Source of the DNA: an uncultured virus (IMG/VR IMGVR_UViG_3300028666_000003)
Lineage: Duplodnaviria; Heunggongvirae; Uroviricota; Caudoviricetes
Strand: one strand, 5' to 3'
Virus record (IMG/VR): IMGVR_UViG_3300028666_000003
Length of the DNA: 64,000 nt
Position numbers and translations under genes: made by a program. The notes beneath the pieces were generated by a model. The model was given only the letters and a program-made list of their open reading frames with translations, made no database searches and had not been told where the DNA came from. Of this stretch, positions 1-50,585 are shown piece after piece (within the stretch, counting starts at the first letter, position 1; each line of letters opens with the position of its first letter).

Positions 1-731
1 TGATCCAGGACTAGGCACCATGCTGTGCGTTCCTTGCACGAGAATGTGAAGCATAGAACCTTGTGTTCCCAATCCAGTTTCTTGTAGGCATTCAGACTGG
101 TGGACTCGATGTCGAAACTGAAGGCAGGAGCATCCCACAGTTCCACAATCATCTGCTTGAACTTGGCAATGGTATCCACCAAGGTGTAGTTCACAGAGGA
201 CTTGATGGCAAAGACCCCTTCCCCTGCGTCAGCGATCTTGACCAGATCTGCCATGAAGGTTGGCATCGAATCGGGATAAGCGATGACCTGACCAGGATGG
301 AGAGTGGGCACGATAACTCGCCCATCAAGTTCCACTGCATTGCCATGGGCTGTGAGGATCGACTTCTGCTTGGCAATCATCTTGCAGGGAGTTGCACCCA
401 TAGGCACGATGATGGTTTTCTTGTCCACCTTAGCCAGAAGTTTCTCAGTGAGAGGATAGCAGTGCTGGCCCTCACGAATCTGTGCCTTAACTGCCTCACC
501 CGCGTTGCAGCGGGTGAGATAGGCCACTTCCATGTCGTTGGTATCAAATTCACAAGCACGTAGCAACCGCTTGAGTCGAGCCTTTCCTGAAGTAGTAAAC
601 TGATCACACACAAACAGGAACTTGGGACTGTAGTTGAAATCTTCTGGGGGTCTCCAGGTGTTGTCTGTTACGTGAAGCTTACACGTTTCACAGTTAGGCC
701 CTTGACTACAGGATATTTTTACCTCACCCAT
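1..731 (-). CDS. DNA polymerase (family A/SPO1-like), 5' part: degenerate family-4 UDG-like domain followed by 3'-5' exonuclease; runs off window edge
   Basis: Not in the ORF track. Manual translation from ATG at 731 (TAATG overlap) gives MGEVKISCSQGPNCETCKLH..KFLFVCDQ..LTRC..HCYP..IIVPMG..IVPTLHPG (UDG-F4 fold motifs), then FSFDIESTSL (ExoI DxE motif); open to position 1. Confidence 0.8.
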   Translation of the reverse strand, partial: MGEVKISCSQGPNCETCKLHVTDNTWRPPEDFNYSPKFLFVCDQFTTSGKARLKRLLRACEFDTNDMEVAYLTRCNAGEAVKAQIREGQHCYPLTEKLLAKVDKKTIIVPMGATPCKMIAKQKSILTAHGNAVELDGRVIVPTLHPGQVIAYPDSMPTFMADLVKIADAGEGVFAIKSSVNYTLVDTIAKFKQMIVELWDAPAFSFDIESTSLNAYKKLDWEHKVLCFTFSCKERTAWCLVLD

Positions 732-1177
732 TACGGATTCTCTTGACGCATCTGAGCCAGCTCATCGGCCATCTCCTGCTCAGGCAGGATGAGCTGATTC
801 AGAAGGAATATGGCGTGTTCCACATCCCCGGCGCCACGCCAGTTGGAAATCAATCCCATGATCTCCACCTCCAGAGCAGTCAAGCCGTTGTCCGTGCAGA
901 ACCGGATAAGATTGGCCGGAAAGGATTTAGTATGCATGATGCAGAGTGGCACCACATAATTCCAATCCTTGACCTGAATACGGGAGAGCAGTTTCTCAGC
1001 GTAGTGCTTGGACTTCAACAGGTCCTGCAGCCCATTTTTCTTGCGCCAGCGGGAGATATACTTGGTAATGCACCCCTCCAAGTATCGGCCTTCCAGGCAG
1101 TCGTGCACGAAGTCCCAGTGCTGGTATTGGGTCTGGTAGTGCTTGCCACCTACCTGGTATTCATTTGGATTACTCAT
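731..1177 (-). CDS. DUF3310-like protein (common in nucleotide-modification loci)
   Basis: QVGGKHY..QHWDF..YLEGCITKYISRWRKKNGLQDLLKSKHY signature. Confidence 0.8.
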   Translation of the reverse strand: MSNPNEYQVGGKHYQTQYQHWDFVHDCLEGRYLEGCITKYISRWRKKNGLQDLLKSKHYAEKLLSRIQVKDWNYVVPLCIMHTKSFPANLIRFCTDNGLTALEVEIMGLISNWRGAGDVEHAIFLLNQLILPEQEMADELAQMRQENP

Positions 1178-1722
1178 CTGATAGCCTCCAGCCAGTGTTG
1201 TTGAACTTCATTAACCACGATTCGTATCACTTCGTTGGGAGAAAATACTGACTGGAGGCCATAGACCATATCCATGACACGTTCATTCCACCAGCTAAAG
1301 CATCCATTCAAGGACTTGTTACCCATCATGCGTTCCTGGCAGCAGAATAGCATTCCTGATAGATAATCTGCCAGTTTCAGGATAAACTGCTCATCGGCGT
1401 TTAGAACAAAATTCCAATCACGCTGGACTAAAGCTCTGTGCTCCATGTCCTCAAGTTCCTGGCCACTAGGGAGTTGCAACTTGATGTGACCAGGCAAGTC
1501 CCCAGTGGTCTGTTCAGCCATGTCGTGTGCAATAGCAGCCATAATGAGGTTGTAGGAAGCCCCCTGCATCAATACATGACAGAGCCACGCCACCTGAAAG
1601 CTATGGGCTGCCACGGAGTTTTCACCGATGGTGTTACAGGTATGGAAGCGTTTGGTTTGGCCTCCCAGCACCGCAAACTGGACAGACCTGCGAAGTCTGC
1701 ACATTTCTTTGCCATCCATCAC
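1174..1722 (-). CDS. HD-domain 5'-deoxynucleotidase (YfbR-like)
   Basis: KRFHT..ENSVAAHSF..AHDMAE..TGDLP..KLAD motifs. Confidence 0.85.
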   Translation of the reverse strand: MMDGKEMCRLRRSVQFAVLGGQTKRFHTCNTIGENSVAAHSFQVAWLCHVLMQGASYNLIMAAIAHDMAEQTTGDLPGHIKLQLPSGQELEDMEHRALVQRDWNFVLNADEQFILKLADYLSGMLFCCQERMMGNKSLNGCFSWWNERVMDMVYGLQSVFSPNEVIRIVVNEVQQHWLEAIR

Positions 1723-2882
1723 ACACTCTCCTTCTTGAGAAAATCGTTAGCCAACCACTGCATGGCACGTGGCATCTGAGAGAGCAAAGCATCAGCCAGG
1801 TCCAGCGCCCTTGCCTTCCGGCAGTGATAAATCAGGAGCATACGAAACAGATTACACCAGTATTCAGGCACTTCGTATTCTGAGAATGCCTGATCCATAT
1901 TCATGATACAGGTGTTGTAGAAGGCTGACACTGTTCTGGCAGCATGATCGTTGGATTTGGCATTCTCGTAAATAGTGAGCATCTGATTGGTCAAGAAATT
2001 CCTGGACTGCTTCTCAAATGGGTCCCAATACTTGCTCACGAAGTTGTCAAACTCCTGGAGAGCCCAGCGCATGTCCCAGCCTTTGCCATAGAACGTGTCT
2101 GACAGTTTGTCCAGGTCTGCACCTTTGCTAACCCAGCCTTCCACAGTATCAAGAGTCTCAGGATACAGGTTCTTGTAATAGTGCAGGTTATTGGCCGTCA
2201 CGTGGTAGTCACCCACCTCCACCTGAAGGGAACCAGCCATAAGGGCTTGCAAATGAGACATCTGGATCATGTTGTAGGGCACACCCCAGATCAGGTCATT
2301 TGACCGGCGCACCACAGTCATGTTCAACCTGCCCTTGCGCACCCAGAAATACAATAGATTATTACATGGGTGGTCCTTGGACTGCACCAGGTTGTCTTTC
2401 ACGGGGTCCCAGAGACTCACCACAGCCTGACGAGTGTCATGATCCTGCAAAATCTTGGAGATCACATACTGCAGTTGGTCAATCTCCACTTCGCTAGACT
2501 GGATGCCCACAGTGCGGTTGTGGGGGATCTCCCTGAATGGGGATTCGTTGTAACCAGCATGTCTCACCCGCCTTCCGTAAGACCCATGGAAGTAAGGGAT
2601 GCCAGCATCCAGGAAATTGGTGATACTCTTGTTGTAGAACTTGATGAAATCAGCACCACCCTTGCCTGACCACATCCAGACTACTTCAGCCAAGGCAAAG
2701 AATGGATTGAGTTTGCGCCCTGGAATAAAAAGTGCCCACTCCTGGGGCTTTTCCAAACTCCAACCTACAGGATGCTCCATCTCAATTACTGACTGTCCTC
2801 GGGGTGCTGCGTAGTGGCCTTCTCGTTGAACCATCTCCAACAAGTCTGGGTAAATACAAAACAGATTACGACCTTTTTTCAT
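1719..2882 (-). CDS. Thymidylate synthase-family dUMP hydroxymethyltransferase (5hmdUMP synthase)
   Basis: DTRQAV, KDHPCN catalytic Cys, RSNDLIWGVPYN (Asn indicates dUMP specificity), NLHYY. Start moved to ATG 2882 behind an AGGAGG RBS. Confidence 0.8.
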   Translation of the reverse strand: MKKGRNLFCIYPDLLEMVQREGHYAAPRGQSVIEMEHPVGWSLEKPQEWALFIPGRKLNPFFALAEVVWMWSGKGGADFIKFYNKSITNFLDAGIPYFHGSYGRRVRHAGYNESPFREIPHNRTVGIQSSEVEIDQLQYVISKILQDHDTRQAVVSLWDPVKDNLVQSKDHPCNNLLYFWVRKGRLNMTVVRRSNDLIWGVPYNMIQMSHLQALMAGSLQVEVGDYHVTANNLHYYKNLYPETLDTVEGWVSKGADLDKLSDTFYGKGWDMRWALQEFDNFVSKYWDPFEKQSRNFLTNQMLTIYENAKSNDHAARTVSAFYNTCIMNMDQAFSEYEVPEYWCNLFRMLLIYHCRKARALDLADALLSQMPRAMQWLANDFLKKESV

Positions 2883-2899
2883 ACTGCCTCCTACCCTAA

Positions 2900-2927
2900 A
2901 TAACGGGTAGAACCTAGGAAAAGTTTC
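2900..2927 (-). promoter_or_regulatory. Putative phage-sigma promoter (AACTT-N15-CGTTAT)
   Basis: Matches a motif repeated at 3281, 9484, 12620, 14714 and 51141; lies directly upstream of the hydroxymethylase RBS. Confidence 0.55.
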
Positions 2928-2931
2928 ACAA

Positions 2932-2972
2932 GAGAAAGGCCCCGCCGCGTTGTATGGGCAGGGCCTTTGTCT
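2932..2972 (-). terminator. Intrinsic terminator-like hairpin
   Basis: AAAGGCCC...GGGCCTTT inverted repeat followed by TTTCTCTT on the minus strand. Confidence 0.55.
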
Positions 2973-2974
2973 CA

Positions 2975-3278
2975 CATTGGATCGTTCTCAGAGCGAGTTC
3001 GCAGTGCAGTGACGCTCTGGGCGCCCACAGGCATACCTAAGCACAGATGTCTCTGGCGTGGCGGCTGCCCCGCCTGAACAGGCCACGTGGGCCACGGAGA
3101 AAGCCAGGTGATCCGTCCCTGGCTATGCATCCCCTCTTGGGGTCCACGACTGCAGCCTCACTGCAGCGGGTAGGCCATGACGGCGCCAGTGCGGTCTTGT
3201 AGACCATCGGCACCGTGGGAGGCATCCCAAAGAGGGTGAAAACGAAAAAGCGCATAGGTGAATTTTCCCTTCTGCACT
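2975..3278 (-). ncRNA. Candidate ~300-nt structured noncoding RNA (alternatively 72-aa ORF 3037..3255)
   Basis: Own promoter motif upstream and terminator downstream; many nested complementary segments. Confidence 0.45.
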
Positions 3279-3280
3279 AA

Positions 3281-3308
3281 GTAACGTGGTGGGGCGACGA
3301 AAGGATTA
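3281..3308 (-). promoter_or_regulatory. Putative phage-sigma promoter (ATCCT-N15-CGTTAC)
   Basis: TAATCCT ttcgtcgccccacca CGTTAC on the minus strand. Confidence 0.6.
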
Positions 3309-3311
3309 AAT

Positions 3312-3806
3312 TTATTTTTCCAGACTTTTCTTGTTGGCCCAATACAAGAGTTTTGCTGCTATACACTTCTGTCGTTTTTGGTCCGAGCATGGTTTCTGAT
3401 TCAAAGCGTTTAGTCTTAACTGCTGCACAAGTTCAGGTCGGTCTTGTAACCTGGTCCTTACTATCTGGGACAGCTGTGCCTTCACTTCAGGAGTGGCCTT
3501 GGTGCCTCCAGGAGATCCAGCAATGGGATACATATTGTAGCCATGATTGCAATCTGCACTCTGGAAAATGATCATGAAAAGTTGTTCCAACCGTAGCATG
3601 TCCTTCTTGGAACACTCCATAAGCACTCGAAACTGAAAGGCATCCTTGCCATACTTGTTCCATGCCCTCTGGAGGTAAACACTGTGATGCACGTTCCGTC
3701 TCAGCTCTGACTGGTGTTCACTCCATCGCTTTTCCACGTGTATGGAAGAGCCAATATAAGCCCTCCCGTCCACCATATTTGTGATGCAATAGACACCAAT
3801 GGACAC
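3312..3806 (-). CDS. GIY-YIG homing endonuclease (free-standing)
   Basis: GVYCITN..AYIGSS..RWSEH..LQRAWNKYG..E..GYN. Confidence 0.9.
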   Translation of the reverse strand: MSIGVYCITNMVDGRAYIGSSIHVEKRWSEHQSELRRNVHHSVYLQRAWNKYGKDAFQFRVLMECSKKDMLRLEQLFMIIFQSADCNHGYNMYPIAGSPGGTKATPEVKAQLSQIVRTRLQDRPELVQQLRLNALNQKPCSDQKRQKCIAAKLLYWANKKSLEK

Positions 3807-3809
3807 AAG

Positions 3810-4787
3810 TCACCCCTTCAGGCGTTCAAAGTCTGCTTGACCTGGTTTTGCGTGCACAGTAAATTTGTTTCTGGGGCGCCCAGTTCCATTCAGAGCCTTG
3901 AGGTACTTAAATACCTCACAGCAACAGTGTTCTATATTTCTCAGGGTGAGCCAACGACCATCGTAAGCAATAGCCTCAAAAGGGAGCTTAAGCCTCGCAA
4001 ATTCCCTTTCCTGTGCTTGCCTGAGAACCTTTATCATCCAAGCACAATCATTGGGTTTGATACCTGGGAATATAGCAGCAAGTCCTCTCTGGCACCCTGG
4101 GCCAGCGTTGACCCACTCGTCCTCTCCAAGATTATTCCATTCACAATAGGAGATATCAACTGCCATCTCATATGCAAGGAAAGGCCCAATACCTGGAAAT
4201 GCAGTCAGAGCCTTGTGAATCGTTTCAAGGCTTTTTGCCTTGTTAATGATTCGCATCAAGACTTCCATGCCCATGATGACACCATGGAAAATATACTCGA
4301 AGCGTTCCAATTTGTCTTTCCCAGGGAAATGTTCGTATGCACATGTCATATGTGCATCCGTGTAGAGTGAGTTGCCATCGTCAGCCCACTCACGCAAGAT
4401 GGTGAAAGCCTTGCGGAATCCCTTGTCCGTGGCCCAGCGCCCAAACGACCTGAAACCCAGGTGGTCATAGGTGCTGACACGGTTGAACATGCGATACACG
4501 ATGATGTTCCACACCTGGTCTACAGGTTCCATCTTCTCACAGATGTTGTCCAGCAGGTAGATGGTGCCCCGGTCCAGCTCACGGTAGACATTCGTGAACT
4601 TGTATTCGTTGAAAATGGGATTGTCACTCCATGGAGCCCTCATGCCCATGATGAAGCGTTTGTGCCAGATCTCCTGGCGATCATAGATGAACTGCCAGAA
4701 CCTGTCCAGATTTTCCTGATTGATACCCAACTTCTTTTCCAGGAGAGAATCCTGCAGGGTGACCATTGCGTCCAAAGTCGCACTCAT
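3810..4787 (-). CDS. aGPT-Pplase1 / 5-hmdU DNA kinase helical-domain protein
   Basis: ERQ-like DRQEIW, PWSDNPIFNEYKFTNVYRELDRGT, HhH-like PGIGPFLAYE, GPG, IEHCCCEVFKY. Confidence 0.8.
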   Translation of the reverse strand: MSATLDAMVTLQDSLLEKKLGINQENLDRFWQFIYDRQEIWHKRFIMGMRAPWSDNPIFNEYKFTNVYRELDRGTIYLLDNICEKMEPVDQVWNIIVYRMFNRVSTYDHLGFRSFGRWATDKGFRKAFTILREWADDGNSLYTDAHMTCAYEHFPGKDKLERFEYIFHGVIMGMEVLMRIINKAKSLETIHKALTAFPGIGPFLAYEMAVDISYCEWNNLGEDEWVNAGPGCQRGLAAIFPGIKPNDCAWMIKVLRQAQEREFARLKLPFEAIAYDGRWLTLRNIEHCCCEVFKYLKALNGTGRPRNKFTVHAKPGQADFERLKG

Positions 4788-4796
4788 AATACACTC

Positions 4797-5498
4797 CTAA
4801 AAAACAGGTCCAAGATCCGGGTAAAGCCCACAGAACCGCTTGAACACGTCTTCCATGGTGCCACTTGTCTTCAGAACTTTACAATCCACATCGCCTTGTT
4901 CCAGGTAGAACTTCAATTGCCTTATGCTGTTCTGATACTTCTGCGCCACGAGAGCAGTGTTTATCTCTTTGCCTCCATTGCGAATCTGAATGCGACGGAG
5001 TGCCTCTTTGAGAGGAGTCCCCATAAAACAGAAACTTACTTGCCTTGAATGGACTTCTCTGAAACCTTTCATGATCTCGTAAAAAGTGCTGCAAATATCC
5101 CCCACGATGACCCCCTCAAAGAGAATGTGGACATCCTTCTTCCACAGCGCTTTAAGGATCTGTTTGACAACTTGAGTGTCTCCCAATGAGTCACAACCAC
5201 CACACGCAGTATCCTTGAGATAAAGACCGATGAGGACCACTCCATATTGGGGTAGAAACGTAGCAACAGGCTTCTTATCCAACTGGGTGAGCGTAAGTAA
5301 GACAGCCTTCTTGTCATGCTGAATCATCCTCATCGGAATGGTGGACTTGCCTGTGCCATTTGCGCCTTTAAGATTGATTGCGTAAAGAGGCTTTCGGGGG
5401 CCTTTCGCAGCTTTTAGCGTGGAAAGTCTCCAGACGGGAATCCCATCGTAGCTGCTGATCCAAAGTTCCTCATCTCTTTCGATAGATCTGCGTGCCAT
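4797..5498 (-). CDS. P-loop nucleotide kinase (5hmdU-DNA kinase-type)
   Basis: INLKGANGTGKST Walker A; IGLY..CGGCD; ILFEG; lies between the aGPT-Pplase genes. Confidence 0.75.
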   Translation of the reverse strand: MARRSIERDEELWISSYDGIPVWRLSTLKAAKGPRKPLYAINLKGANGTGKSTIPMRMIQHDKKAVLLTLTQLDKKPVATFLPQYGVVLIGLYLKDTACGGCDSLGDTQVVKQILKALWKKDVHILFEGVIVGDICSTFYEIMKGFREVHSRQVSFCFMGTPLKEALRRIQIRNGGKEINTALVAQKYQNSIRQLKFYLEQGDVDCKVLKTSGTMEDVFKRFCGLYPDLGPVF

Positions 5499-7410
5499 TG
5501 AGAATCCCTCTCTTGGTAAACGGTGCAAGGCCAATCATGTGACCAGTATCACGCATTACATGTTCCATGCTTTTCTGAATACACAGTTGCGGAGGTTTCT
5601 GATATTCTCCAAGCAATTCCCACATCAGGCACTCTTTACGGAATTGCCAAAGCACCATCCAATCCACGCCACTTGTGATATCGGTCTCTTGCATTTGCAG
5701 GATTTCATCGGCGCCTCTGGAAAGATAGTATCCCAAATACCTGCCCTTGGTTGGTCTCCAATAGCCCTTCCAGGAGCACAAGCAGGATTCCATGAACCAA
5801 TAATCCATGGGCACATCAGGATATTCATCCTTGATCTCTTTCATGAGAGCCTCCAGACCCTCTTCTAGTTCTGTCCACTCCTCCTGAGTGAGCTTTGCTT
5901 TTGCCCAATCGGGCCTGTTTAGGGCGTAACATAAGCCTGCACGCGGAGATGCGGCATCTTTCAAGAAAACGGTATCAGCCTGTATTGGCATGCCCATGCA
6001 CCTTGCAAGGGCTTCAGTCATGATATAGGTTGCGTATCTTCCAAATCGAGTGAGAGTCTTGAGTTTATCAAATACCTTGTGAAAGTTCTTGACTGGGTCT
6101 TTGCTCTTCAGAAGTTTGCTGTAAAACTCTTCCTGAGCATTAGGAGTCTGAGAACCAATCATGTCCTTGTAAGACAGGAACATCTCCACGAAATGCCCCT
6201 TCTCCCATTTACGGTCTGTATTATACCGGAGTTTCTGCCAGTTTGCAGCGTGCCACCGTTCAAGTCTGCCTACATCCACCTTTTCAAATTCTGGAAACTC
6301 CTGGAGCACATAGAATACGGTCCCAGGTTGATAGAAAACACCATAGAGCCAACAAATCCAATATTCCTGAGACTTGCTGAACTCAAATCTTTGAAAAAGG
6401 TAATTGAGCATGGGGTATGCAACGTCAATTTCCCAGGACGTGATGGCAGCCACAGAGTAGTGCTTGAAGCAGGTTCGCATGTCCTTGCGGTAATCCCTGG
6501 TCTTGCCATTGTCCATCTGCAGGTCTTTTCCACGGTTGGTCTGCTTTCTGTTGTCCAACCATTGATGATAAATGATGTCAGGCCGCTGGAACCTAAATTC
6601 CTTGGGGTATGAAAAAGGGAGCTCAATAGCATCCCGGTTAATGTGCTTGTCCAAGGTGTAGACAGTATATGGCTTTGCTTCCCAGATAGCAACTCCAAGA
6701 TCCTCGGTGATACCTGACTTCTTGATAGCTCTCTGGATAATGTCACGAGTGGAAGCAAATCCAATAAATCCCCAGGCTTTGATGAACACAAACCATAGCG
6801 GTCGAATGTGGTCCCTGATGGCATAGACGTTTCCATCTCCATCCAGGAATCCACAGGCAAAGATTGGGGGGTCAACCCGGTGAATCCTGTCAAGTCCTTC
6901 AGCAATCGCTGATCGAATAACGCCAGATCCCTCATCGGTGATGCCTGATCCCTCCATGACCACGATGGCATTTTCAATCTCCTCAAGGATGATCTCCGAG
7001 TCATTATCAGTCTTGCAGGACACGTTGTAGAGGGGCTCATACTCTTCACGGGTGGCCATGGACACAAGACCATTATGAACGATGGCCAATCTTCCAACCG
7101 CGATAGGCTGATTATTGGCGTTGGTTTCCCAGTCTCCACTCGTGCTGTAGCGGGTATGCGCGATGAGGGACATGGGTCTGTCCCTGCGCATATCTTCCCA
7201 CTCCCTAGACTTCAGGAACTCACTAGCGGGCACAGGGGACTTCCTGACCTGTAGTCTCCAGCGGTCTGTGTATTCAGGCCCACGTAACCAGGATACTCCT
7301 GTGGCGTGCATCCCACGAATCTGACTCTGAAGCATAAGTTGTTCAACAAAATTCAACGCCTCATGCTGATGAGTTTTGTTCAACAACCTACATCCTACAA
7401 TCCCGCACAC
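5470..7410 (-). CDS. Class II (Ntn) glutamine amidotransferase fused to aGPT-Pplase2/amino acid:DNA transferase domain
   Basis: GTG start at 7410 after GGAG gives MCGIVG; RGMHATG, AHTRYST, NNQP, HNG, TDNDSE, RD..RPL. C-terminal EIDVAY, YWICWLY, TDRK, RFGRY, ESCLCSWK, RYLGYY. Confidence 0.8.
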   Translation of the reverse strand: MCGIVGCRLLNKTHQHEALNFVEQLMLQSQIRGMHATGVSWLRGPEYTDRWRLQVRKSPVPASEFLKSREWEDMRRDRPMSLIAHTRYSTSGDWETNANNQPIAVGRLAIVHNGLVSMATREEYEPLYNVSCKTDNDSEIILEEIENAIVVMEGSGITDEGSGVIRSAIAEGLDRIHRVDPPIFACGFLDGDGNVYAIRDHIRPLWFVFIKAWGFIGFASTRDIIQRAIKKSGITEDLGVAIWEAKPYTVYTLDKHINRDAIELPFSYPKEFRFQRPDIIYHQWLDNRKQTNRGKDLQMDNGKTRDYRKDMRTCFKHYSVAAITSWEIDVAYPMLNYLFQRFEFSKSQEYWICWLYGVFYQPGTVFYVLQEFPEFEKVDVGRLERWHAANWQKLRYNTDRKWEKGHFVEMFLSYKDMIGSQTPNAQEEFYSKLLKSKDPVKNFHKVFDKLKTLTRFGRYATYIMTEALARCMGMPIQADTVFLKDAASPRAGLCYALNRPDWAKAKLTQEEWTELEEGLEALMKEIKDEYPDVPMDYWFMESCLCSWKGYWRPTKGRYLGYYLSRGADEILQMQETDITSGVDWMVLWQFRKECLMWELLGEYQKPPQLCIQKSMEHVMRDTGHMIGLAPFTKRGILNGTQIYRKR

Positions 7411-7468
7411 ATCAGACTCCAAATACAAGACAGGGGTCGCATGGACCCCTGCCGTTGGTGTTGTGAAG

Positions 7469-7669
7469 CTACTTGCTGACCTTCAGGGTCATGATCAGGG
7501 ACTTGGGGGGCTCCACGTCAGCCCCGTTGAACACTGCCAGGTCCTTGGGGAAGTAGACATTGGACATGCCCTCATCCATGTTGGAGAACACATGGGTGCC
7601 CTTCGTGGACTTGACGAAAGTCAGACTGATGCTGGTCTCGGTGGATGCTTTCTTGGTCTCAGCGGCCAT
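7469..7669 (-). CDS. Small hypothetical protein
   Basis: RBS AAGGA, biased codons, followed by hairpin at 7432-7451. Confidence 0.6.
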   Translation of the reverse strand: MAAETKKASTETSISLTFVKSTKGTHVFSNMDEGMSNVYFPKDLAVFNGADVEPPKSLIMTLKVSK

Positions 7670-7741
7670 TTCTGGTCCTTTCTAGGAAAACAGGGGAACA
7701 CCGTGATGGCATTCCCCTGTAGGTTTGGCGCCGGTGTTGAA

Positions 7742-8719
7742 CTACTTCTTGGCCTTGGCCGCCGACTTGCCCTGCTCGCCCAGGAACTTCTTCATGGACA
7801 TGACGCAGAGCATGCGGTCGATGCGCGGATCGTCCTTGCGGTCCCACTTGACACCGGCCTTCTTGGCCGCCTTGAACAGCGCCTCGTTCTCCTTGTAGGT
7901 GGTCTTGAGCTTGTCCACGAACTCGGCCTGGAGGGTGTTGAGGGCCGGAGCAGCCTTCTTCTCCTTCTTGGCCTTGGGCTCGGGCTCGGCCTTGGTGGTC
8001 TTCTTGGACTTCTTGGGGGCTTCCTCTTCTTCGTCTTCGTCCTCATCCCCCTCTTCGTCCACTTCCTCCAGGTCCAGGTCTTCGTCTTCCTCATCGTCCT
8101 CTTCGACGACGGGCTTGGCGGCCTTCTTGACTGGCTTCAGGTCCTTGGCCGCAGCCTTCGCGGGGGTCTTGGTGATGACTTCGTCCTCTTCGTCATCCTC
8201 TTCCACGGTCTTCTTGGCCTTGGTGTCGGGCTTCTTGCTCATGATGGTGTCCTCCTGGGACGGGGTGCTTTCCAGGGCAAGCACTTGGAGTTGGTTGTGA
8301 GAAACTACCAGAACAACCTTGTTCCCCTGGGACAAGGTTCTTGCGATCTGGCCTGTTTTTTGAGAAAGCACTTCCCGCAGATCATCCACATCAGCACGTT
8401 TGCCAAGGGGATAGACCACGTGAACTCGCTCTGCTGGAACCATGACTTCAGCAGATCCGTTGTGGGTGCACTTTGCTTTGCACTCCACTCGATCCAAGCA
8501 GACCTTGCATTCCACTGCGGTTCCGTCATGGAATCGGGCGAAACAGTCAGGCACTAACGAATGCTTGTCGCTCATGGTTGTCCTCAGAATCTGTTGAATT
8601 TTGAACTCAGGTTTCTTGCAGTGCGCACGAATCCATCGGGTTAAGGCTGGGGAAAGGGTGGTGGGAATCCCCTTGGACAGGATGCTATCGATGATGCTGT
8701 CCAATTCCTGCAGACTCAT
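7742..8719 (-). CDS. Cys-rich N-terminal domain in frame with a Lys/Asp/Glu-rich histone-like protein (internal start at 8242)
   Basis: DCF..ECKVC..ECKAKC; strong AGGAGG-ATG at 8242 begins MSKKPDTKAKK with acidic tracts. Confidence 0.65.
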   Translation of the reverse strand: MSLQELDSIIDSILSKGIPTTLSPALTRWIRAHCKKPEFKIQQILRTTMSDKHSLVPDCFARFHDGTAVECKVCLDRVECKAKCTHNGSAEVMVPAERVHVVYPLGKRADVDDLREVLSQKTGQIARTLSQGNKVVLVVSHNQLQVLALESTPSQEDTIMSKKPDTKAKKTVEEDDEEDEVITKTPAKAAAKDLKPVKKAAKPVVEEDDEEDEDLDLEEVDEEGDEDEDEEEEAPKKSKKTTKAEPEPKAKKEKKAAPALNTLQAEFVDKLKTTYKENEALFKAAKKAGVKWDRKDDPRIDRMLCVMSMKKFLGEQGKSAAKAKK

Positions 8720-8760
8720 GTGATCGTGGGCTAACCCACCAAGCTCAAAGACAATGAGCT

Positions 8761-9384
8761 TCAGCACATGGCTTTGTTCAGCTTGTAACTGTGGGCTGAG
8801 CACATATGCTCCATAAAGGCGTGTTGAAGTTCACGAATCAGGTTCTTGGTCTTGCTAAGGCCAAACCCTAGCGTCTTTCCAGCGAGACGGTGGGGAATCT
8901 TGTTGGTGATCAGGGTCTTGAAACCTTGCTGCTTGATATGCTCTCTCCGCATGGTCTGAAGTTGGAACTCCAACAGCAACTCTGTAGAGGGCTCCACGAG
9001 CAAATCCAGGAGCAAGGCTGCATCGGAACTCACGAAGTGGGCCAGATACTCTTGGCAATATCGCAAGTTAAGTTCCGCAAAAGCATCCTCACCATACCAC
9101 AAGGTTGCTTCTTCCAAGTCCATGGTAACCAAGTAGTGGTCCTGAAGGAACTGCTCACGCTGGATGTCGATAAACCTGTGGGACAACGAGGTCTTGAAAA
9201 TCTTGTCCAGTTCCGCATCAGGTTTGCCGCTGTTCGCCGCAGAGGTGTAAACCTCATACAACTTGATCAACCCTTCCTGGTGCAGATCACAAACATCGTA
9301 TCCTCGCAGGTTCCTAGCAAACTTGTGAGCCACGGCCCAGACGTATTTGTCGAACTTCTTAATTGCCTCATCGCAGGAGACCAC
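8761..9384 (-). CDS. Sigma-70-family phage sigma factor
   Basis: Region-2-like YVWAVAHKF..DLHQEGLIKL; C-terminal HTH-like segment. Confidence 0.65.
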   Translation of the reverse strand: MVSCDEAIKKFDKYVWAVAHKFARNLRGYDVCDLHQEGLIKLYEVYTSAANSGKPDAELDKIFKTSLSHRFIDIQREQFLQDHYLVTMDLEEATLWYGEDAFAELNLRYCQEYLAHFVSSDAALLLDLLVEPSTELLLEFQLQTMRREHIKQQGFKTLITNKIPHRLAGKTLGFGLSKTKNLIRELQHAFMEHMCSAHSYKLNKAMC

Positions 9385-10548: not shown

Positions 10549-11828
10549 TAAGCTGGCTCGATTCTTGAATGTTCAAAGTTCGTGATAGTGCTGTAGGTAT
10601 TGTGTTTCTTGCCTACACGGTTCTTTACCACAAACCAACGCATCAGATCTTCCTGTTGTTCCTCTTCGTTCTGATTCAGGGACCACACCACATCTGCCGT
10701 AGCCATCTTCTTGAAGTCACCTGCTACGTCTTCCATCTTGGAAGTTTGCTTCTGGGCGCCACTCCGATTGGTCTGGGTAGCCGACCACATAGCCAGGTTC
10801 TCTTCCTCAGCCAAGGCCCGGAGTTCCTCACCCACCCATGTAAGTTGATTCACTTCGTCACGGATATGCGTGGGCATCTCCATCAAGTCCATGTAGTCCA
10901 GAACCACTGCATCTGGATCAAACCCTATGGATCGCAATAGCATGATGTGAGCCCGTAACCCTGCGACAGACAGTCTATGGGCTGAGAAGTGCTTGATGTT
11001 CACGTCTGCCTTGAGATTTGCCTTGTGCTTGAAAAGCCACTTGGCTACCCTCACCTGTTGGTCATCGTCCAGGTTCGTGAGTTGCTCCCAACTACGATCC
11101 AGGAAGCACCGCTTATACATCGCCAGCATGAGTGGTTCACTCATCTCCATGCTGATGTGTGCAACTTTGAATCTCTGTTTACAGGTTCCCACACCAATGT
11201 TGACTAACCCTGTGGTCTTCCCCACGTTGGGTGGAGCCATAAGCATGCCATATTCACCCCGAGCCAATCCGCCTCTGGTGGGTTTGTCGATAAACGGAAG
11301 TCCTGTGGGCACACAATCCCGGACCTTCTCATTAATCTCTTGGTTCTGTGCATCCCCAAATAGGAAAACACCCCTGCCCTGGAGTTCAGATCCGATGGCA
11401 AGGGCCTTCTGCATTCGTGGAACGATTGTGCTTAGATCACCTTTCTGAATGTCATCCACGGTCTTGAGCGTGGCTTCCTTTACTGCTTGTTCCCGGCAGA
11501 AGGCTACCACCTCACCTGCTATGTATTCCGCTTCCTCAGCAGCGTCCTTCCGTTGTGCTATGGTGTCACTCAAAAATTCTGTGAAGTCTTCCATCGTGAC
11601 ATCTGAATTCTTGGAACCCTTGAAATACTTTTCAGCCCGATTCAGCAGGACCACTTTGCTGGGTGGTTTATTGTATTCTCTGTAGTGCTCCAAAATGAAC
11701 CTGGCAAGGTGCTGTTCTACCGGCTGCTCAAAGTATCGCGGATGTAAGATTGCATTTGCTACTACCAAGAACCGTGCATCGACTGTCATGAGTGCAAGAA
11801 CATTCTGGCGGAACAGGTCTAATCTCAC
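10548..11828 (-). CDS. Replicative DnaB-like helicase
   Basis: GGLARGE..APPNVGKTT, ISMEM, LDYMD, ATQTNR, VKNR. Confidence 0.92.
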   Translation of the reverse strand: MRLDLFRQNVLALMTVDARFLVVANAILHPRYFEQPVEQHLARFILEHYREYNKPPSKVVLLNRAEKYFKGSKNSDVTMEDFTEFLSDTIAQRKDAAEEAEYIAGEVVAFCREQAVKEATLKTVDDIQKGDLSTIVPRMQKALAIGSELQGRGVFLFGDAQNQEINEKVRDCVPTGLPFIDKPTRGGLARGEYGMLMAPPNVGKTTGLVNIGVGTCKQRFKVAHISMEMSEPLMLAMYKRCFLDRSWEQLTNLDDDQQVRVAKWLFKHKANLKADVNIKHFSAHRLSVAGLRAHIMLLRSIGFDPDAVVLDYMDLMEMPTHIRDEVNQLTWVGEELRALAEEENLAMWSATQTNRSGAQKQTSKMEDVAGDFKKMATADVVWSLNQNEEEQQEDLMRWFVVKNRVGKKHNTYSTITNFEHSRIEPA

Positions 11829-12601
11829 GATGTCTCCAGTTTTCCATATCGGGTTTCAGCTTCTTCCAGGGCATCATGACAAAACTTTCGGGCCCAGGGG
11901 GACTTCTTGTATTGCGTCCAAAGTTTCACTAGGTTCCCAGAGTCGAGAATACCTGGCTCTAGGATCTCATCTCTGAAAGCTTGATGAGCGACTAGATACC
12001 AGGCAGGAACGTAGGTGTTTATGTAGGCCAGGGCTGCACTTGTTGTAGGCGGTTGAATCTCTTTGAAAACTGGTTGCCACTTCAAAGCATCTCTGTGACC
12101 TGCAAAAACGGCATTACGAATTGTCAATTTCAGGGTTTTGTTGAAGGATTGTTCACGGTCTTCTGTGCGAATGAACTTTCGTGCTAGCTTGTAATCCCAG
12201 TCCAGGTATCTCTTCATGGCGTTGGGACCGTAGAAACATGTGATCCAGATGAATGGGATTCGTTTCAGGGTATCAAACTGGGCTGTGAACCAGTGTCTGA
12301 GTGGAATCTTTTCAGCTTGGCAAAACCAGAAGATTGTAAGAAGCAGTGGGGTGTTCTTGTGCCTCAGAATCTCCATGGTAGGTGACGGCAGGGCAATTCG
12401 AGAGTTCATGGGTGGTTTGGATTTCCAGAACTCTTTGTAGGTTGATCGAGTGATGTGCACCAACCTCAGTATGGCAATTCTCGTGGTTCGGGTTTTCCTG
12501 GAGTCTTCGCATCTCTTGGCTTCCTTTAGTTCCAGTTCCAGGTTTTTACAGGTTAACTTCTGCTCTGCTAACACCATTTTCCAATTTAATGGGGTGTTCA
12601 C
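11825..12601 (-). CDS. Hypothetical replication-region protein
   Basis: ORF overlaps the helicase start; GTG at 12601 behind AGGAG and the promoter motif. Confidence 0.65.
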   Translation of the reverse strand: MNTPLNWKMVLAEQKLTCKNLELELKEAKRCEDSRKTRTTRIAILRLVHITRSTYKEFWKSKPPMNSRIALPSPTMEILRHKNTPLLLTIFWFCQAEKIPLRHWFTAQFDTLKRIPFIWITCFYGPNAMKRYLDWDYKLARKFIRTEDREQSFNKTLKLTIRNAVFAGHRDALKWQPVFKEIQPPTTSAALAYINTYVPAWYLVAHQAFRDEILEPGILDSGNLVKLWTQYKKSPWARKFCHDALEEAETRYGKLETS

Positions 12602-12619
12602 TATCGACTCCTGACCTAG

Positions 12620-12647
12620 ATAACGAACAAATAACGAGAAAGGATTT
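12620..12647 (-). promoter_or_regulatory. Putative phage-sigma promoter (ATCCT-N15-CGTTAT)
   Basis: AAATCCT ttctcgttatttgtt CGTTAT. Confidence 0.6.
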
Positions 12648-12936
12648 AAATTTATACTCTTGTGCGTAGCACACGAACAGGAGCAAAGCGACTGTTCGAT
12701 AGATAAGTGGATCAAGCTAACACTACTTACGCATTTTCCTGTAAAAGAACGTCCGATAACTCACAAGAAATAGTAAAAAAGCGGCGTCATTTTACATAAA
12801 TCCCCAATCTTTTAATCTTTTAAGGTACTTAACTGACATAAGTATCTAACGTACCTGCGGCGCCCTATAGTATAGCGGTCGTTGCGCGCGTATGTTCCTT
12901 GATGTCAATGCTCGCGCATATAGGCTATCTTAGGTT

Positions 12937-14445
12937 TTATAATGCCAAAGGCCGCTGTAAGTGCTTGTGGTGCACAAGACCCGGATTTACAAAGTCTAAA
13001 AGTTCTTGTGGGGCATCTGCAAACTTCTCAGTAATCTTGAACTTTTCCTGGGTATAGATTTTTCGGCGTATGCGGGAGTGTGCCCGAGTGTATTTATTGT
13101 AGTGGTCAAAGAAATCCACAATCCATAAATCCTTCTGCATGTTTGCAGCTGTGCGGACACTTCTGCCCACACGCTGTAAGAGCAGAGTTGCAGACTTTCC
13201 ACCTGAAGCCATAATCATGGCCTCGATATAATCCACAGACAACCCTGTGCTAAACACAGTTGTGATACAACAGAATCCCACCCCTTGTGCTAAACCTTCC
13301 TTGGCTCTATCCCGGTATTTGTGGGAGGTTCGGCCTGTAACTACCACAGAGTTTGGGATTAGTGCATGTAACATTTTGGCATGAGCAACCCGATTTACCA
13401 TGACCATGGTCTGCCGTCCAGACTTCACAAATCCCTGGGCTAACTCTGCAATCAACCTATTCCTGGAATTGCAGTTCATGGTGGCCACATCATAGTCTGC
13501 CAGGTCCAGAGTTATGGCTTCAGACTTACTGATTTGTGGTTCCAGGAGCAAGACCGAAGGCGCAACAGAGATCCCTTTGTCCATGAGTTCCAGGTTAGAA
13601 ACCACCTTTAGCAGAGGGCCGAAGTAACCCGTGATGGTAAGCCGATTGCCATAATTCTTATCAAAAGGCGTGCCACTTAATCCCACTCGGTATTCTGCCG
13701 GGATACGCCTGAGACACTTTTGATAGGTATCCGCCATAGCCAGGTGGCACTCATCACCAAACAGAAGTTTGACTTTTGCAAACCATCGTTTCGTGGCAGC
13801 GTCGAAATGCTTGTGAAGGGTCTGATACATGCAGACTGTGATTCCATCGGGATTGGGTTTGTAGACGTTGTCTCCCACCTTACCCACATTCACACCTAGG
13901 CGTTCCTCCAGGCGTTCTGCAGTCTGGTGCAATAGCTCTCGACTGGGAACCATGAAAATGGTGGAAGGCGTTTTAAGATACTGCATGATGGCTGCAGCCA
14001 CCTCGGTTTTTCCACCGTTGGTAGCCAGCTTTAGGATTCCACGATGCCACTTGAGAACTTGTATCACAGCTTCTAACTGGTAGCCACGAACAGGATCAGC
14101 ATGATCCATGACAATCATGTCTGTCTTGGAATCCATTAATTCAATTCGTGTGAGGCTTTCATAGTCAGGACATGCTTCAGGATAACCCTGAATTTCTACA
14201 TATAGGTCTTCAGCAATAAGCTGTCGCACAACCGCTGAGAGTAACCCAGACTGAAACTTGCCAGACTCCGGTTTAAAGAAGTGTTGGCATCCATCCCACA
14301 CGCCTAGTTGGTATTTGGCACTGAAGATTGCACCCTCAACCCATACCGATAAAGCCTTGTCGAGAACCAGATAAGCCTCTTTCAACTCCTTGCGGTTATC
14401 TCCACGCAGGTGCGATGTGACAGGGCCATACTCAATCCACAACAT
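12937..14445 (-). CDS. SF2 DExH helicase (UvsW-like)
   Basis: LATNGGKT, DECH, LSGTP, QRVGRSVR; start at TAATG overlap 14445. Confidence 0.9.
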   Translation of the reverse strand: MLWIEYGPVTSHLRGDNRKELKEAYLVLDKALSVWVEGAIFSAKYQLGVWDGCQHFFKPESGKFQSGLLSAVVRQLIAEDLYVEIQGYPEACPDYESLTRIELMDSKTDMIVMDHADPVRGYQLEAVIQVLKWHRGILKLATNGGKTEVAAAIMQYLKTPSTIFMVPSRELLHQTAERLEERLGVNVGKVGDNVYKPNPDGITVCMYQTLHKHFDAATKRWFAKVKLLFGDECHLAMADTYQKCLRRIPAEYRVGLSGTPFDKNYGNRLTITGYFGPLLKVVSNLELMDKGISVAPSVLLLEPQISKSEAITLDLADYDVATMNCNSRNRLIAELAQGFVKSGRQTMVMVNRVAHAKMLHALIPNSVVVTGRTSHKYRDRAKEGLAQGVGFCCITTVFSTGLSVDYIEAMIMASGGKSATLLLQRVGRSVRTAANMQKDLWIVDFFDHYNKYTRAHSRIRRKIYTQEKFKITEKFADAPQELLDFVNPGLVHHKHLQRPLAL

Positions 14446-47419: not shown

Positions 47420-48023
47420 AATTGTCCCCTTTGACAGACGACTTCTTAGTGCCTCAGCAGAACTAAGAAGGTGGTTTAGCGTCACCAAGGGCAACAAACG
47501 TCTGTTGCGTATAGGCACGATGCCAGAGATGTTGTTGCCTGAGTCCTTCCTGAAATCCCCGCAGCATCCTGTGGAGCTCATGCTGATAGCTCTTATGGAG
47601 GGAGCCTGGATCAGTGCTGACGATTGGAAACCCTATGCCCGCCTGACCATTGCCTCTCGCCTGAAGCGAAAGAGAGCCCTCATATTCCATGACACGTTTG
47701 CTGAGATGCAAGAACCTGTGATGGACTACCAGCTACACGGTGGAACTTTCAAAGAACAACAGCGTATTCAGAAGTTTGCCAAACACATTTTGACTTTGCG
47801 CACTCCAGACGTGTATTTACAGGGTTGTGCTCGTCTGTGCCTATCCATCGCAAGTGAAAACCAGATAACCGCATGTGTCCACCCATTACACTGGATTCGT
47901 GCTGTCATAGCCACTCAGGATTTTCAACCTGCATTCGGTATGGCAGCTCTCCAAGTGGAGATGATGGACCAGAAGAAGACCTTGTGTAGGCTGATCAGGA
48001 CAGAACTGCCCGAGAACATCTAG
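47409..48023 (+). CDS. Hypothetical protein
   Basis: Coupled 204-aa ORF. Confidence 0.6.
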   Translation: MSIEIVPFDRRLLSASAELRRWFSVTKGNKRLLRIGTMPEMLLPESFLKSPQHPVELMLIALMEGAWISADDWKPYARLTIASRLKRKRALIFHDTFAEMQEPVMDYQLHGGTFKEQQRIQKFAKHILTLRTPDVYLQGCARLCLSIASENQITACVHPLHWIRAVIATQDFQPAFGMAALQVEMMDQKKTLCRLIRTELPENI

Positions 48024-49937: not shown

Positions 49938-50585
49938 CTAATTACTAGCCCAGTCTGACGTCACTCCCTGAGCTTTACACATGCGTTCGATCTTGGTTAG
50001 GGCTTCCTGGATGAGTTGCCATCCACGCTGTTTGGACACATGGCAGAGAGCCGATGCATCCGCAATGGTCATTGGTTCTCCCAGGAATCCATACACTGCC
50101 CTGATGAGAAACCTTTTCCGGGGGGAAAGACGCATCAGGAAGTGTTTAAGCAGATTCTGCGCAGCAGTCTTGAAGAGTTCGTCTGGCTCAGGGGGTGCCG
50201 CTAGCTGCGACTCGAATGGCTGCGGTCGGTAACTGGTGTCCCCCACGGGAGCAGACAGATAGACAAAGTTGAACATTATTTTTGGCCGGTCTTCCTTCTT
50301 CATGGCCATGTAGTTACGCTTGGGGATGTGGACCACGCTGGACTTGTAATACAGTTTCCTGATCTCCTGACGCATCCTGAAGATGGCATAGGTGGAGAAT
50401 GAGGCTGCAGAGTCGTGCTCTTCCTCATAGTTATGGGCAGCCACAGTGGCCCCCAGGAGAGCTGCTTGGATCAAATCCTCCAGGTCATACGTGCTGTTAG
50501 GCACCTTGTGGGCACTAAGAGCAAGGGTGACTGCAAGACCATGAACTGAACTGACACGTTCTTCAACAATCTGTCTACTTACCAT
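49938..50585 (-). CDS. Sigma-70-family phage sigma factor
   Basis: EDLIQAA.LG..A..Y, FSTYA, V.IP, L.PR..I..YG, HTH VSKQR..Q...AL.K. Confidence 0.85.
   Translation of the reverse strand: MVSRQIVEERVSSVHGLAVTLALSAHKVPNSTYDLEDLIQAALLGATVAAHNYEEEHDSAASFSTYAIFRMRQEIRKLYYKSSVVHIPKRNYMAMKKEDRPKIMFNFVYLSAPVGDTSYRPQPFESQLAAPPEPDELFKTAAQNLLKHFLMRLSPRKRFLIRAVYGFLGEPMTIADASALCHVSKQRGWQLIQEALTKIERMCKAQGVTSDWASN

Follow-up and report, generated by a model that had tools for sequence, protein, structure and literature searches.

A 64-kb stretch of DNA from an uncultured virus of the Caudoviricetes (IMG/VR record IMGVR_UViG_3300028666_000003; the whole stretch is called the window below) is a contig of a soil phage that carries, at positions 731–7410 on the minus strand, a cassette whose gene content is that of a thymidine hypermodification pathway like those of phages M6 and PaMx11. 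One gene of this cassette encodes, in a single chain, a class II glutamine amidotransferase (GATase) of the N-terminal nucleophile (Ntn) kind and a DNA transferase of the AADT family. We propose, with a probability of roughly 0.6, that ammonia derived from glutamine displaces the phosphate of 5-phosphomethyl-2'-deoxyuridine (5-PmdU) in DNA, so that one enzyme would make 5-aminomethyl-2'-deoxyuridine (5-NmdU). Ammonia delivery is favoured because the glutamine site is invariant, the Trp and Lys that hold the amino acid in a solved relative are replaced, enzymes that trim an amino-acid adduct are absent from GATase loci, and acetyltransferases resembling gp48 of phage PaMx11 often lie nearby. 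Thymidine hypermodification protects phage DNA from restriction, and its enzymes are also tools for modified DNA. Amidotransferase genes have been seen beside such pathways since at least 2021, their role being left open in two reports (PMC8989533; PMC13229309).

The fusion protein and its split relatives

The gene and its parts are laid out as follows.

5470..7410, minus strand: GATase-AADT fusion gene, 646 aa, with the Pfam domains GATase_6 and ADDT in one open reading frame (ORF); GTG start 7410-7408, stop 5470-5472
6676..7410, minus strand: class II (Ntn) glutamine amidotransferase domain, residues 1-245; codon of the Cys nucleophile 7405-7407
6484..6675, minus strand: inter-domain linker, about residues 246-309 (about 65 residues; boundaries approximate), outside both BLASTP alignments to a split pair
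5473..6483, minus strand: AADT (aGPT-Pplase clade 2) domain, residues 310-646; Glu541 at 5788-5790, Cys545 at 5776-5778
7429..7453, minus strand: terminator-like hairpin upstream of the ribosome-binding site of the fusion gene; 10-pair stem with 7 G-C pairs and a T-rich tail

An earlier note, made from the letters of the window alone, had described a GTG start that exposes Cys1, and the sequence reads just so: GGAG at 7420-7417, a 6-nt spacer, GTG at 7410-7408 and the Cys codon TGC at 7407-7405. Since the Cys codon directly follows the GTG, Cys would be the first residue of the processed protein, which is what an Ntn amidotransferase needs. The hairpin at 7453-7429 has the longest stem in the window's list of terminator-like structures and stands at its top, as a consensus match only. 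P0001, the publicly annotated version of the protein (587 aa), starts about 60 residues late and lacks the Cys; five of the 61 fused homologues are truncated at the N-terminus in the same way, which indicates that automatic annotation tends to hide the Ntn nucleophile. The fused architecture itself is visible in the public JGI annotations P0056 and P0059. A search of 5.8 billion protein clusters with the fusion returned 64 matches, nearly all of 600–670 aa and with both Pfam domains, and from these comes the fused-family alignment of 61 full-length, two-domain members that are 38–72% identical to the window protein. The ESM Atlas, searched with the fusion protein, gave no usable match.

The amidotransferase half is an intact class II (Ntn, PurF-type) domain, as the earlier note had claimed; its start, its profile score and its glutamine-binding and oxyanion residues are all those of the class. 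The match to GATase_6 reaches 38.5 bits, where the cut-off is 27 (E 1.4e-9, residues 87-152). The profile of the fused family, run against PDB sequences, finds PurF (8e-13) and GlmS (1.4e-9) over the N-terminal ~190 residues, and its motifs align with the glutamine site of PurF. The NCBIfam purF model matches at 5.8e-9 with 35.8 bits, far under its equivalog cut-off of 350; the cut-offs of both full-length equivalogs, purF and glmS, are unreached because the glutaminase domain is all that the fusion has in common with these enzymes.

Conservation within the family is strict. R32, G33, R87, T90, G92, N113, G114, D137 and E139 are present in all 61 fused rows, and C2 in 56 of them, the other five being the truncated gene calls and not substitutions. 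The 48 unique stand-alone GATases keep R87 (46), T90 (47), N113 (47), G114 (46) and D137 (47), and 46 of them have Cys at position 2; taken as longest ORFs, 48 of 59 stand-alone GATases begin with M-C. The Arg and Thr of HxRxxTxG, the Asn-Gly pair and the Asp of DSE we take to be the glutamine-binding and oxyanion residues, as in PurF and GlmS. The invariance of the residues for the alpha-amine and alpha-carboxylate suggests that the domain hydrolyses free L-glutamine, and it argues against a DNA-tethered substrate. PurF itself replaces a phosphoryl leaving group with glutamine-derived ammonia.

The transferase half matches ADDT (PF18724) over residues 353-554 with 78.5 bits (cut-off 26.2; E 7.9e-22) and has the E-x3-C signature of the family, the translation reading ESCLC at this point. 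Glu541 and Cys545 are found in 61 of 61 fused rows, in register with the Glu and Cys of M6 gp51 and with E243 and C247 of PaMx11 gp46. Mutating this Glu/Cys pair abolishes the activity of M6 gp51 and of ViI gp247 (PMC8989533). The solved member is PaMx11 gp46, a glycine:DNA transferase in which Trp146 binds the carboxylate of glycine and Lys150 its amine (PMC11472151). A phmmer search of the AADT domain against PDB sequences found no match even at E ≤ 10, and gp46 was therefore compared through GenBank DNA and MAFFT, in an alignment of 113 sequences (gp46, M6 gp51, a ViI-like serine transferase, Cr30, Magpie, 61 fused and 47 unique split AADTs).

In this alignment the pocket that gp46 uses for base, metal and phosphate is kept: D24, Y51, E243 and C247 are the same, E92 is replaced by D and D262 by E, and T244 is S or T. 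The position of Trp146 is taken by Y (50) or H (11) in the 61 fused rows and by F (41) or Y (6) in the 47 split rows. The position of Lys150 holds I (44), A (11), Y (5) or V (1) in the fused rows, and I (30), L (9), N (4) or F (3) among 46 of the 47 split rows. The amino-acid-binding Trp146/Lys150 pair thus appears to have been lost. The replacement of both residues, read from a low-identity alignment, suggests a protein that works like an AADT and is probably not an amino-acid transferase.

The earlier note had also seen no decarboxylase, radical-SAM (rSAM) or acetyltransferase partner in the window, and three kinds of search agree with it. Pfam finds none of these among 57 further window ORFs of at least 100 aa; tblastn with M6 gp52, M6 gp53, PaMx11 gp47 and PaMx11 gp48 has no match in the whole window; and a GNAT profile seeded with gp48 has none in the six frames of the window at E ≤ 10. 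Taken wider, tblastn with PaMx11 gp47 (the FAD lyase), M6 gp52 (a pyridoxal phosphate (PLP) enzyme) and M6 gp53 (rSAM) gave no match in 77 GATase-AADT loci and the whole window. The relatives of the phage include its nearest record, a 52.6-kb fragment (G001), and genomes of 80.5 kb (G003, 99% complete) and 105 kb (G005, 100% complete). Profiles for Radical_SAM, DAO, PALP and Amidoligase_2 found nothing in G001, G002, G003 and G005, and a GNAT profile nothing in G001, G002, G003 and G004. With no recognisable tailoring enzyme in the window or in the 99%-complete G003, the predicted final base is unacetylated 5-NmdU. Tet_JBP and ParB_N are likewise absent from the window proteins scanned with Pfam, and a thymidylate synthase (TS)-family enzyme is there instead.

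Other members of the family do have an acetyltransferase at hand. PaMx11 gp48 acetylates 5-NmdU and not glycinyl-T (PMC8989533). A gp48 homologue (35% identity, E 1e-26) lies between the kinase and clade-1 genes of L005, a locus of the fused type, without an FAD lyase. Relatives of gp48 were found by phmmer in seven loci and by the iterated gp48-seeded profile in 23 of 73 sources (72 viral loci and the window).

The 72 viral loci come from an IMG/VR scan with the fused-family alignment, their ORFs being called and clustered by script. Seven of them (L001–L007) have a single fused ORF of 618–662 aa. In 52 others a GATase gene of ~200 aa is directly followed by an AADT gene of ~293 aa, usually with an overlap of ~12 nt, and the remaining 13 are mostly fragments, contig ends or loci, such as L010, in which GATase and AADT genes stand apart. 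The split pair maps onto the fusion: residues 1-229 match the stand-alone 199-aa GATase of L038 (BLASTP, 7e-24) and residues 310-592 the stand-alone AADT of the same locus (7e-49). A separate scan of genome contigs gave five loci, of which one is fused and lies in a contig of a metagenome-assembled genome. In a library of 1.84 billion representatives 319 match at E ≤ 1e-30; about eight of the best 150 of these span both domains, and the others among the 150 are single halves, or AADTs joined to a different domain.

In a FastTree phylogeny of the same 113 AADTs, for which only exact duplicates among the split AADTs had been dropped, the 108 GATase-linked sequences group together in a single clade (support 0.83) that excludes the five GATase-less references, and the 61 fused AADTs form one subclade. 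Split pairs lie most often in a cluster of genes for ParB, a small P-loop kinase, GATase, AADT and a Tet_JBP dioxygenase, with P22-type terminase and portal genes after them; of the 72 loci, 50 have ParB, 40 have the kinase and 40 have Tet_JBP. GATase plus AADT is thus a widespread two-gene module in phage metagenomes, and the pairing is tight and ancient. The fusion is real, and it is less singular than the earlier note implied, since the pair is a common module and its association is in print.

Deposited phages were searched as well. A tblastn search of 50,697 phage records with the fusion returned no record covering at least 80% of the query, and the GATase-AADT pair was found in no phage of that collection, from which records close to the window may be missing. 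Three phages were looked at and set aside. In the cultured Arthrobacter phage Shrooms (L073, L075) the GATase at the right end adjoins an amidoligase gene and no AADT is nearby, so this GATase subfamily may also work outside an AADT context; the left end of Shrooms has ParB-like, PAPS-reductase-like and methyltransferase genes. In Mycobacterium phage Magpie an AADT and a kinase accompany ParB, with no GATase seen at either genome end, and Caulobacter phage Cr30 has an AADT alone. AADTs related to the clade are also found in the public library as fusions with other partners (P0080, P0082, P0123, P0132, P0138, P0144, P0151): P-loop kinases in several cases, an HMUD2 kinase, a low-molecular-weight phosphatase, and a weak, sub-threshold match to PALP (PLP enzymes).

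Ammonia transfer and the alternatives

In the pathway that we propose, the TS-family enzyme would make 5-hydroxymethyl-dUMP before replication, as its family membership and synteny suggest, and the HD nucleotidase, the DUF3310 protein and a nearby dUTPase-like gene would shape the nucleotide pool, so that 5-hydroxymethyluracil (hmU) replaces T in new DNA. After replication the kinase, perhaps assisted by the clade-1 protein, would phosphorylate 5-hydroxymethyl-2'-deoxyuridine (5-hmdU) in DNA to 5-PmdU, the product that its family is reported to make (PMC8989533). The AADT domain would then flip the base; Cys545 would attack C6, the phosphate would leave and an exocyclic methylene would form. 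The Ntn domain would hydrolyse free L-glutamine at Cys1 and pass un-protonated ammonia to the AADT site, where it would add to the methylene and give 5-NmdU directly. The transferase steps have precedents: in clade-2 AADTs the Cys activates C6, phosphate is expelled and the nucleophile adds to the exocyclic methylene, by a base-flipping, Cys-dependent mechanism established for M6 gp51 and PaMx11 gp46 (PMC8989533; PMC11472151), and the methylene intermediate can also be captured by foreign nucleophiles, beta-mercaptoethanol and borohydride among them (PMC8989533). A CTP-synthase-like amination at C4 was rejected, since the 5-hydroxymethyl group is what the kinase family phosphorylates and since an AADT serves as the acceptor domain.

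At odds only slightly better than even, we extend the proposal to the whole GATase-linked AADT clade, fused and split. The clade would have switched from amino-acid to ammonia transfer; the fusion would be a DNA-directed glutamine amidotransferase, and 5-NmdU a common branch-point base, bare in this phage and acetylated or amidated elsewhere. If this is true, Ntn amidotransferases gain a new class of acceptor, a base within polymeric DNA; a single enzyme could place a primary amine, a convenient chemical handle, on DNA; and the products of the many phage clusters with ParB, TET, kinase, GATase and AADT genes would be explained. The window makes a good test system, with one fused polypeptide, one kinase and no tailoring enzyme, and hmU substrate can be had from DNA of the SPO1 or SP8 type.

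Several points weigh against the ammonia proposal. The mapping of gp46 residues rests on a MAFFT alignment at ~21% identity. The change of Trp146 to Tyr is also seen in the putrescine transferase of phiW-14 (PMC11472151), and so it fits a carboxylate-free nucleophile without singling out ammonia. Because the loci were collected for their similarity to the fused family, the clade and the mutual-exclusion counts carry an ascertainment bias. The search for gp48-like proteins was iterative and GNATs are a large superfamily, direct matches being confined to seven loci. Twelve GATase-AADT loci carry an Amidoligase_2-like gene (among them L008, L009, L013, L015, L020, L049, L050 and L057), and in these the GATase could serve another partner; the amidoligase genes also suggest that those phages make acylated derivatives of the amine. 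Locus L010 has two amidoligase-like genes and one GNAT. Several ORFs near the window's cluster match no Pfam or PHROG family, and such family-less neighbours, of which there are many, could hide tailoring enzymes. The window together with L001, a contig of the same phage, spans only ~76 of an estimated 82 kb, leaving ~6 kb outside. The clade-1 protein, whose conserved motif is described below, might be a second transferase.

Some of these points would also fit a phage that delivers ammonia as proposed and has 5-NmdU as an intermediate only. A phage or host enzyme, or the Cys-bearing clade-1 protein, would then decorate the amine further or make a second modification, and the base of the virion would be another one or a mixture. 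The GNAT genes (23 of 73 sources) and amidoligase-like genes (12 loci) that relatives place beside GATase-AADT make this conceivable, as do the C-E-x2-K residues kept in 16 of 16 clade-1 rows, the family-less ORFs near the cluster and the ~6 kb of phage outside the window and L001. We nevertheless hold it to be unlikely, given that no GNAT was found in the six frames of the window or in G001, G002 and G003, that rSAM, DAO, PALP and Amidoligase_2 are absent from G001, G002, G003 and G005, and that the clade-1 protein gp55 of M6 is dispensable for glycinylation in lysates (PMC8989533). The AADT might instead couple glutamine, by way of its alpha-amine, or some other amino acid or amine to the DNA, with the Ntn domain serving as an amidohydrolase on the tethered adduct, to give for instance alpha-glutamylthymidine, or trimming a gamma-glutamyl-masked amine. 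Ntn class II folds do include non-channelling amidohydrolases. No characterised AADT transfers anything but a whole amino acid or a polyamine (PMC8989533, Table 1), and alpha-glutamylthymidine exists in SP10 (PMC5889632). Set against this, the Lys that binds the amine in gp46 has become Ile, Ala or Leu; glutamate is abundant in cells, so that converting glutamine to glutamate on the DNA would bring no gain; and the gp48-like acetyltransferases of relatives fit a small primary amine. Arg87, Thr90 and Asp137 would moreover, judging from the structures of PurF and GlmS, grip the alpha-carboxylate and alpha-amine of free glutamine, and a tethered, N-alpha-substituted glutamine would presumably not fit. 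Such an adduct route we regard as a little less likely again than onward decoration of 5-NmdU. The earlier note had left both courses open, direct ammonia transfer to 5-aminomethyl-dU and a processed glutamine or glutamate adduct; the sequence comparisons favour the former and disfavour the latter.

Both halves of glutamine might also be transferred, the gamma-glutamyl thioester at Cys1 being resolved by the new amine and not by water, which would give gamma-glutamyl-aminomethyl-dU. This is chemically possible, the two sites are tethered in one chain, and the amidoligase genes of some relatives suggest that acylated amines occur in the family. To our knowledge there is no precedent for such glutamyl transfer among PurF-type amidotransferases, and the GNAT and amidoligase loci imply a free amine after the GATase-AADT step; we consider it improbable. 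At the bottom of the scale stands a GATase domain without catalytic relevance, structural or regulatory in kind, beside an AADT that uses an ordinary cellular amine or amino acid, or in a phage that stops at hmU. Such a domain would scarcely have kept its catalytic and glutamine-binding residues invariant in 61 fused homologues, down to 38% identity, and nearly so in 48 stand-alone GATases, nor the N-terminal Cys start, nor a pairing conserved in 59 of 72 loci.

The other genes of the cassette and the phage

The remaining genes of the cassette, with the truncated gene beside them, are these.

4797..5498 (ORF 4797-5534), minus strand: P-loop 5-hmdU DNA kinase, by homology; probable ATG at 5498, overlapping the end of the fusion gene by 29 nt
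3810..4787, minus strand: clade-1 helical protein (HMUDK_hel, PF18723; formerly aGPT-Pplase1); Pfam E 3.5e-65
3312..3806, minus strand: GIY-YIG homing endonuclease, an insertion outside the pathway; Pfam E 4.1e-9, PHROG homing endonuclease 1.6e-26
1719..2882 (ORF 1719-2975), minus strand: TS-family enzyme; probable ATG at 2882 after AGGAGG; Thymidylat_synt (PF00303) E 1.1e-24, 87.4 bits
1174..1722, minus strand: HD-domain, YfbR-like 5'-deoxynucleotidase; Pfam E 1.9e-12, with M6 gp59 and PaMx11 gp52 as homologues at ~1e-11
731..1177, minus strand: DUF3310 protein, possible nucleotide kinase; Pfam E 2.4e-7, 31.1 bits against a cut-off of 24
3..731, minus strand: 5' part of a family-A DNA polymerase gene that runs off the window; PHROG DNA polymerase 1.5e-18

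The six components that the earlier note had named (hydroxymethylase, HD nucleotidase, DUF3310, aGPT-Pplase1, P-loop kinase and the aGPT-Pplase2/ADDT domain) are all present on the minus strand, with Pfam matches far above chance, and the profile searches that it had put forward as a check, for the GATase, ADDT and HMUDK families, find GATase_6, ADDT, HMUDK_HMUD1 and HMUDK_hel. It did not contain the GIY-YIG homing endonuclease, which sits between the clade-1 and TS-family genes, where L002 and L004 have unrelated small ORFs.

The kinase matches HMUDK_HMUD1 (PF18748) with E 2.8e-22 and 79.7 bits against a cut-off of 27, and has the P-loop GANGTGKST. Its identity is 31.9%, over its full length, with the N-terminal half of SP10 gp186 and 30.5% with M6 gp54, both of which are listed as 5-hmdU DNA kinases (PMC8989533, Table 1). 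The clade-1 protein is 27% identical to residues 315-597 of SP10 gp186 (8e-32) and 27% identical to M6 gp55 (8e-22), and it and the kinase match one PHROG, phrog_800, at successive profile positions. By alignment, the kinase and the clade-1 protein are the split counterparts of the N- and C-terminal halves of gp186, a protein listed as aG/PT-PPlase1 (Lee 2018, Table 3, PMC5889632). The assignment to aGPT-Pplase1 in the earlier note therefore stands as to family, under the present name HMUDK_hel and with the C-terminal half of gp186 as its counterpart. The clade-1 protein also carries a motif, [E/Q]-x3-C-E-x2-K, at window positions 3906-3932 on the minus strand (residues 286-294), which occurs in L083, L084 and L085 as well; its C, E and K are kept in every one of 16 rows, among which are the C-terminal half of SP10 gp186 (gp186C), M6 gp55 and PaMx11 gp50. 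It resembles the catalytic E-x3-C-x-[WYF]-K of clade-2 AADTs, and the clade-1 proteins may accordingly be enzymes in their own right, and not mere accessories of the kinase. In M6 lysates, as noted above, glycinylation proceeds without gp55.

The TS-family enzyme is probably the dUMP hydroxymethylase of the cassette. Its translation contains RRSND, HPCNN and GVPYN, the first and last being the motifs that the earlier note had picked out as RSND and GVPYN; the residues of HPCNN and GVPYN are presumably the catalytic Cys and the uracil-selecting Asn of the TS fold. Of its listed relatives, those in phages with hmU-derived DNA are the strongest. It is 39.7% identical (2e-43) to an SP10 gene annotated as dUMP hydroxymethylase, and in a sample of phage matches drawn from the whole ranking an SPO1-like phage comes top, with M6-like and ViI-like phages below. 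The DUF3310 protein matches PHROG nucleotide-kinase families at 5e-13 and is homologous to M6 gp61 (4e-19) and PaMx11 gp53 (8e-18), which hold the same position upstream of the polymerase.

The polymerase gene is complete in L001, an IMG/VR contig of the same phage that is 100% identical to the window and extends past its left edge. There it encodes 888 aa (10558-13224), and beyond it lie a UvsY-like gene, an SSB gene, a dUTPase-like gene and a RecA-like gene. The polymerase has an extra N-terminal domain of ~180 aa with a Cys cluster and a weak match to UDG_fam4 (E 4.6e-4), in keeping with the UDG-PolA fusions described from phages whose genomes are T-modified (PMC13697223).

All long genes of the window are on the minus strand and include T4-type baseplate and tail-tube genes and a large terminase. 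Two of its proteins (48020-49375 and 49938-50585, minus strand) have sigma-70 region 2, one of them with a weak Mor-like match, which suggests phage-encoded transcription control. A 353-aa protein (7742-8803, minus strand) has a long low-complexity stretch rich in Lys, Glu and Asp and no family match; a longer antisense ORF (7376-8557, plus strand) overlaps its gene, and a 66-aa ORF (7469-7669) sits between that gene and the cassette. Searches of the window found no tRNA, no Rfam family and no tandem repeat, and megablast of 12 kb of it against GenBank phages found no match. In Logan contigs the stretch occurs in rhizosphere metagenomes only: half or more of the sampled words are present in four runs, all from one year and one habitat, of which two may be the source of the window itself, and no RNA run is listed with the stretch.

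Comparison with known systems

The closest solved relatives of the N-terminal domain are PurF and GlmS, both of them genuine ammonia-channelling enzymes, with which the fusion has in common the Ntn Cys1, the glutamine site and the logic of putting ammonia in the place of a phosphoryl group. Only the glutaminase domain is common to them, however; the acceptor domain of the fusion is an AADT acting on DNA. We found no paper that assigns the amidotransferase a role in thymidine hypermodification, Iyer et al. 2013 lying outside that search. That work (NAR 41:7635) may already describe GATase genes beside aGPT-Pplase2, and the priority for the association may be older accordingly. In any case, the association of GATase-AADT with thymidine hypermodification is already published as an observation (Lee 2021; PNAS 2026; PMC8989533, PMC13229309).

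A glutamine amidotransferase domain on a phage DNA-modification enzyme also has a precedent in the Gat-QueC fusions of dG+ phages (PMC6884629), which we liken to the GATase-AADT fusion by description only; base (7-deazaguanine), partner domain and chemistry are all different. Much nearer are the ParB/TET-JBP clusters. Metavirome contigs with Tet/JBP and a GATase association have been depicted (PMC8989533, Fig. 2), and a class of 'ParB-dependent T-dioxygenase' is described for which GATases, P-loop kinases and AADTs are listed as linked machinery, with no final base reported (PMC13229309). About 40 of our 72 loci are of this kind, and they have the same GATase and AADT subfamilies, with the AADTs in one clade and the same catalytic residues. 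There, GATase and AADT are separate, translationally coupled genes, and hmU arises only once the DNA is replicated, through a dioxygenase with ParB, whereas in the window the genes are fused and hmU would be supplied before replication by the TS-family enzyme.

The backbone of the cassette is that of M6 and PaMx11. The gene order in M6 is AADT, PLP, rSAM, kinase, clade-1, TS, HD, PolA, and in PaMx11 it is AADT, FAD lyase, acetyltransferase, kinase, clade-1, TS, HD, PolA. The order in the window matches both, and each backbone gene has a homologue there (TS: M6 gp58, PaMx11 gp51; kinase: M6 gp54, PaMx11 gp49; clade-1: M6 gp55, PaMx11 gp50). Kinase and clade-1 protein are separate genes, as in M6 and PaMx11, and not fused as in SP10 gp186. 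The difference lies between transferase and kinase, where M6 has a PLP decarboxylase and a radical-SAM isomerase, PaMx11 has an FAD lyase and an acetyltransferase, and the window has nothing; in place of the enzymes with which M6 and PaMx11 trim a glycine adduct, it has a GATase fused to the transferase. The M6 cluster for 5-(2-aminoethyl)-2'-deoxyuridine (5-NedU; gp51–gp55) is accordingly syntenic with the window in its backbone, and the window differs from it in having neither PLP decarboxylase nor radical-SAM isomerase and in having the GATase fusion.

PaMx11, with its transferase gp46, FAD lyase gp47, acetyltransferase gp48 and kinase gp49, has in common with the window the kinase and AADT families and the predicted intermediate, 5-NmdU. 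It reaches this base with two enzymes, the glycine transferase and the FAD lyase, its nitrogen coming from glycine and being freed by oxidative cleavage (PMC8989533, PMC11472151). The window has no homologue of gp47 or gp48 and lacks Trp146 and Lys150 of gp46, and glutamine would supply its nitrogen in a single step. Of the known systems, the closest is the one by which PaMx11 makes 5-NmdU and its acetylated form, 5-AcNmdU; the window has the backbone and the probable intermediate in common with it, and would differ from it in the source of the nitrogen.

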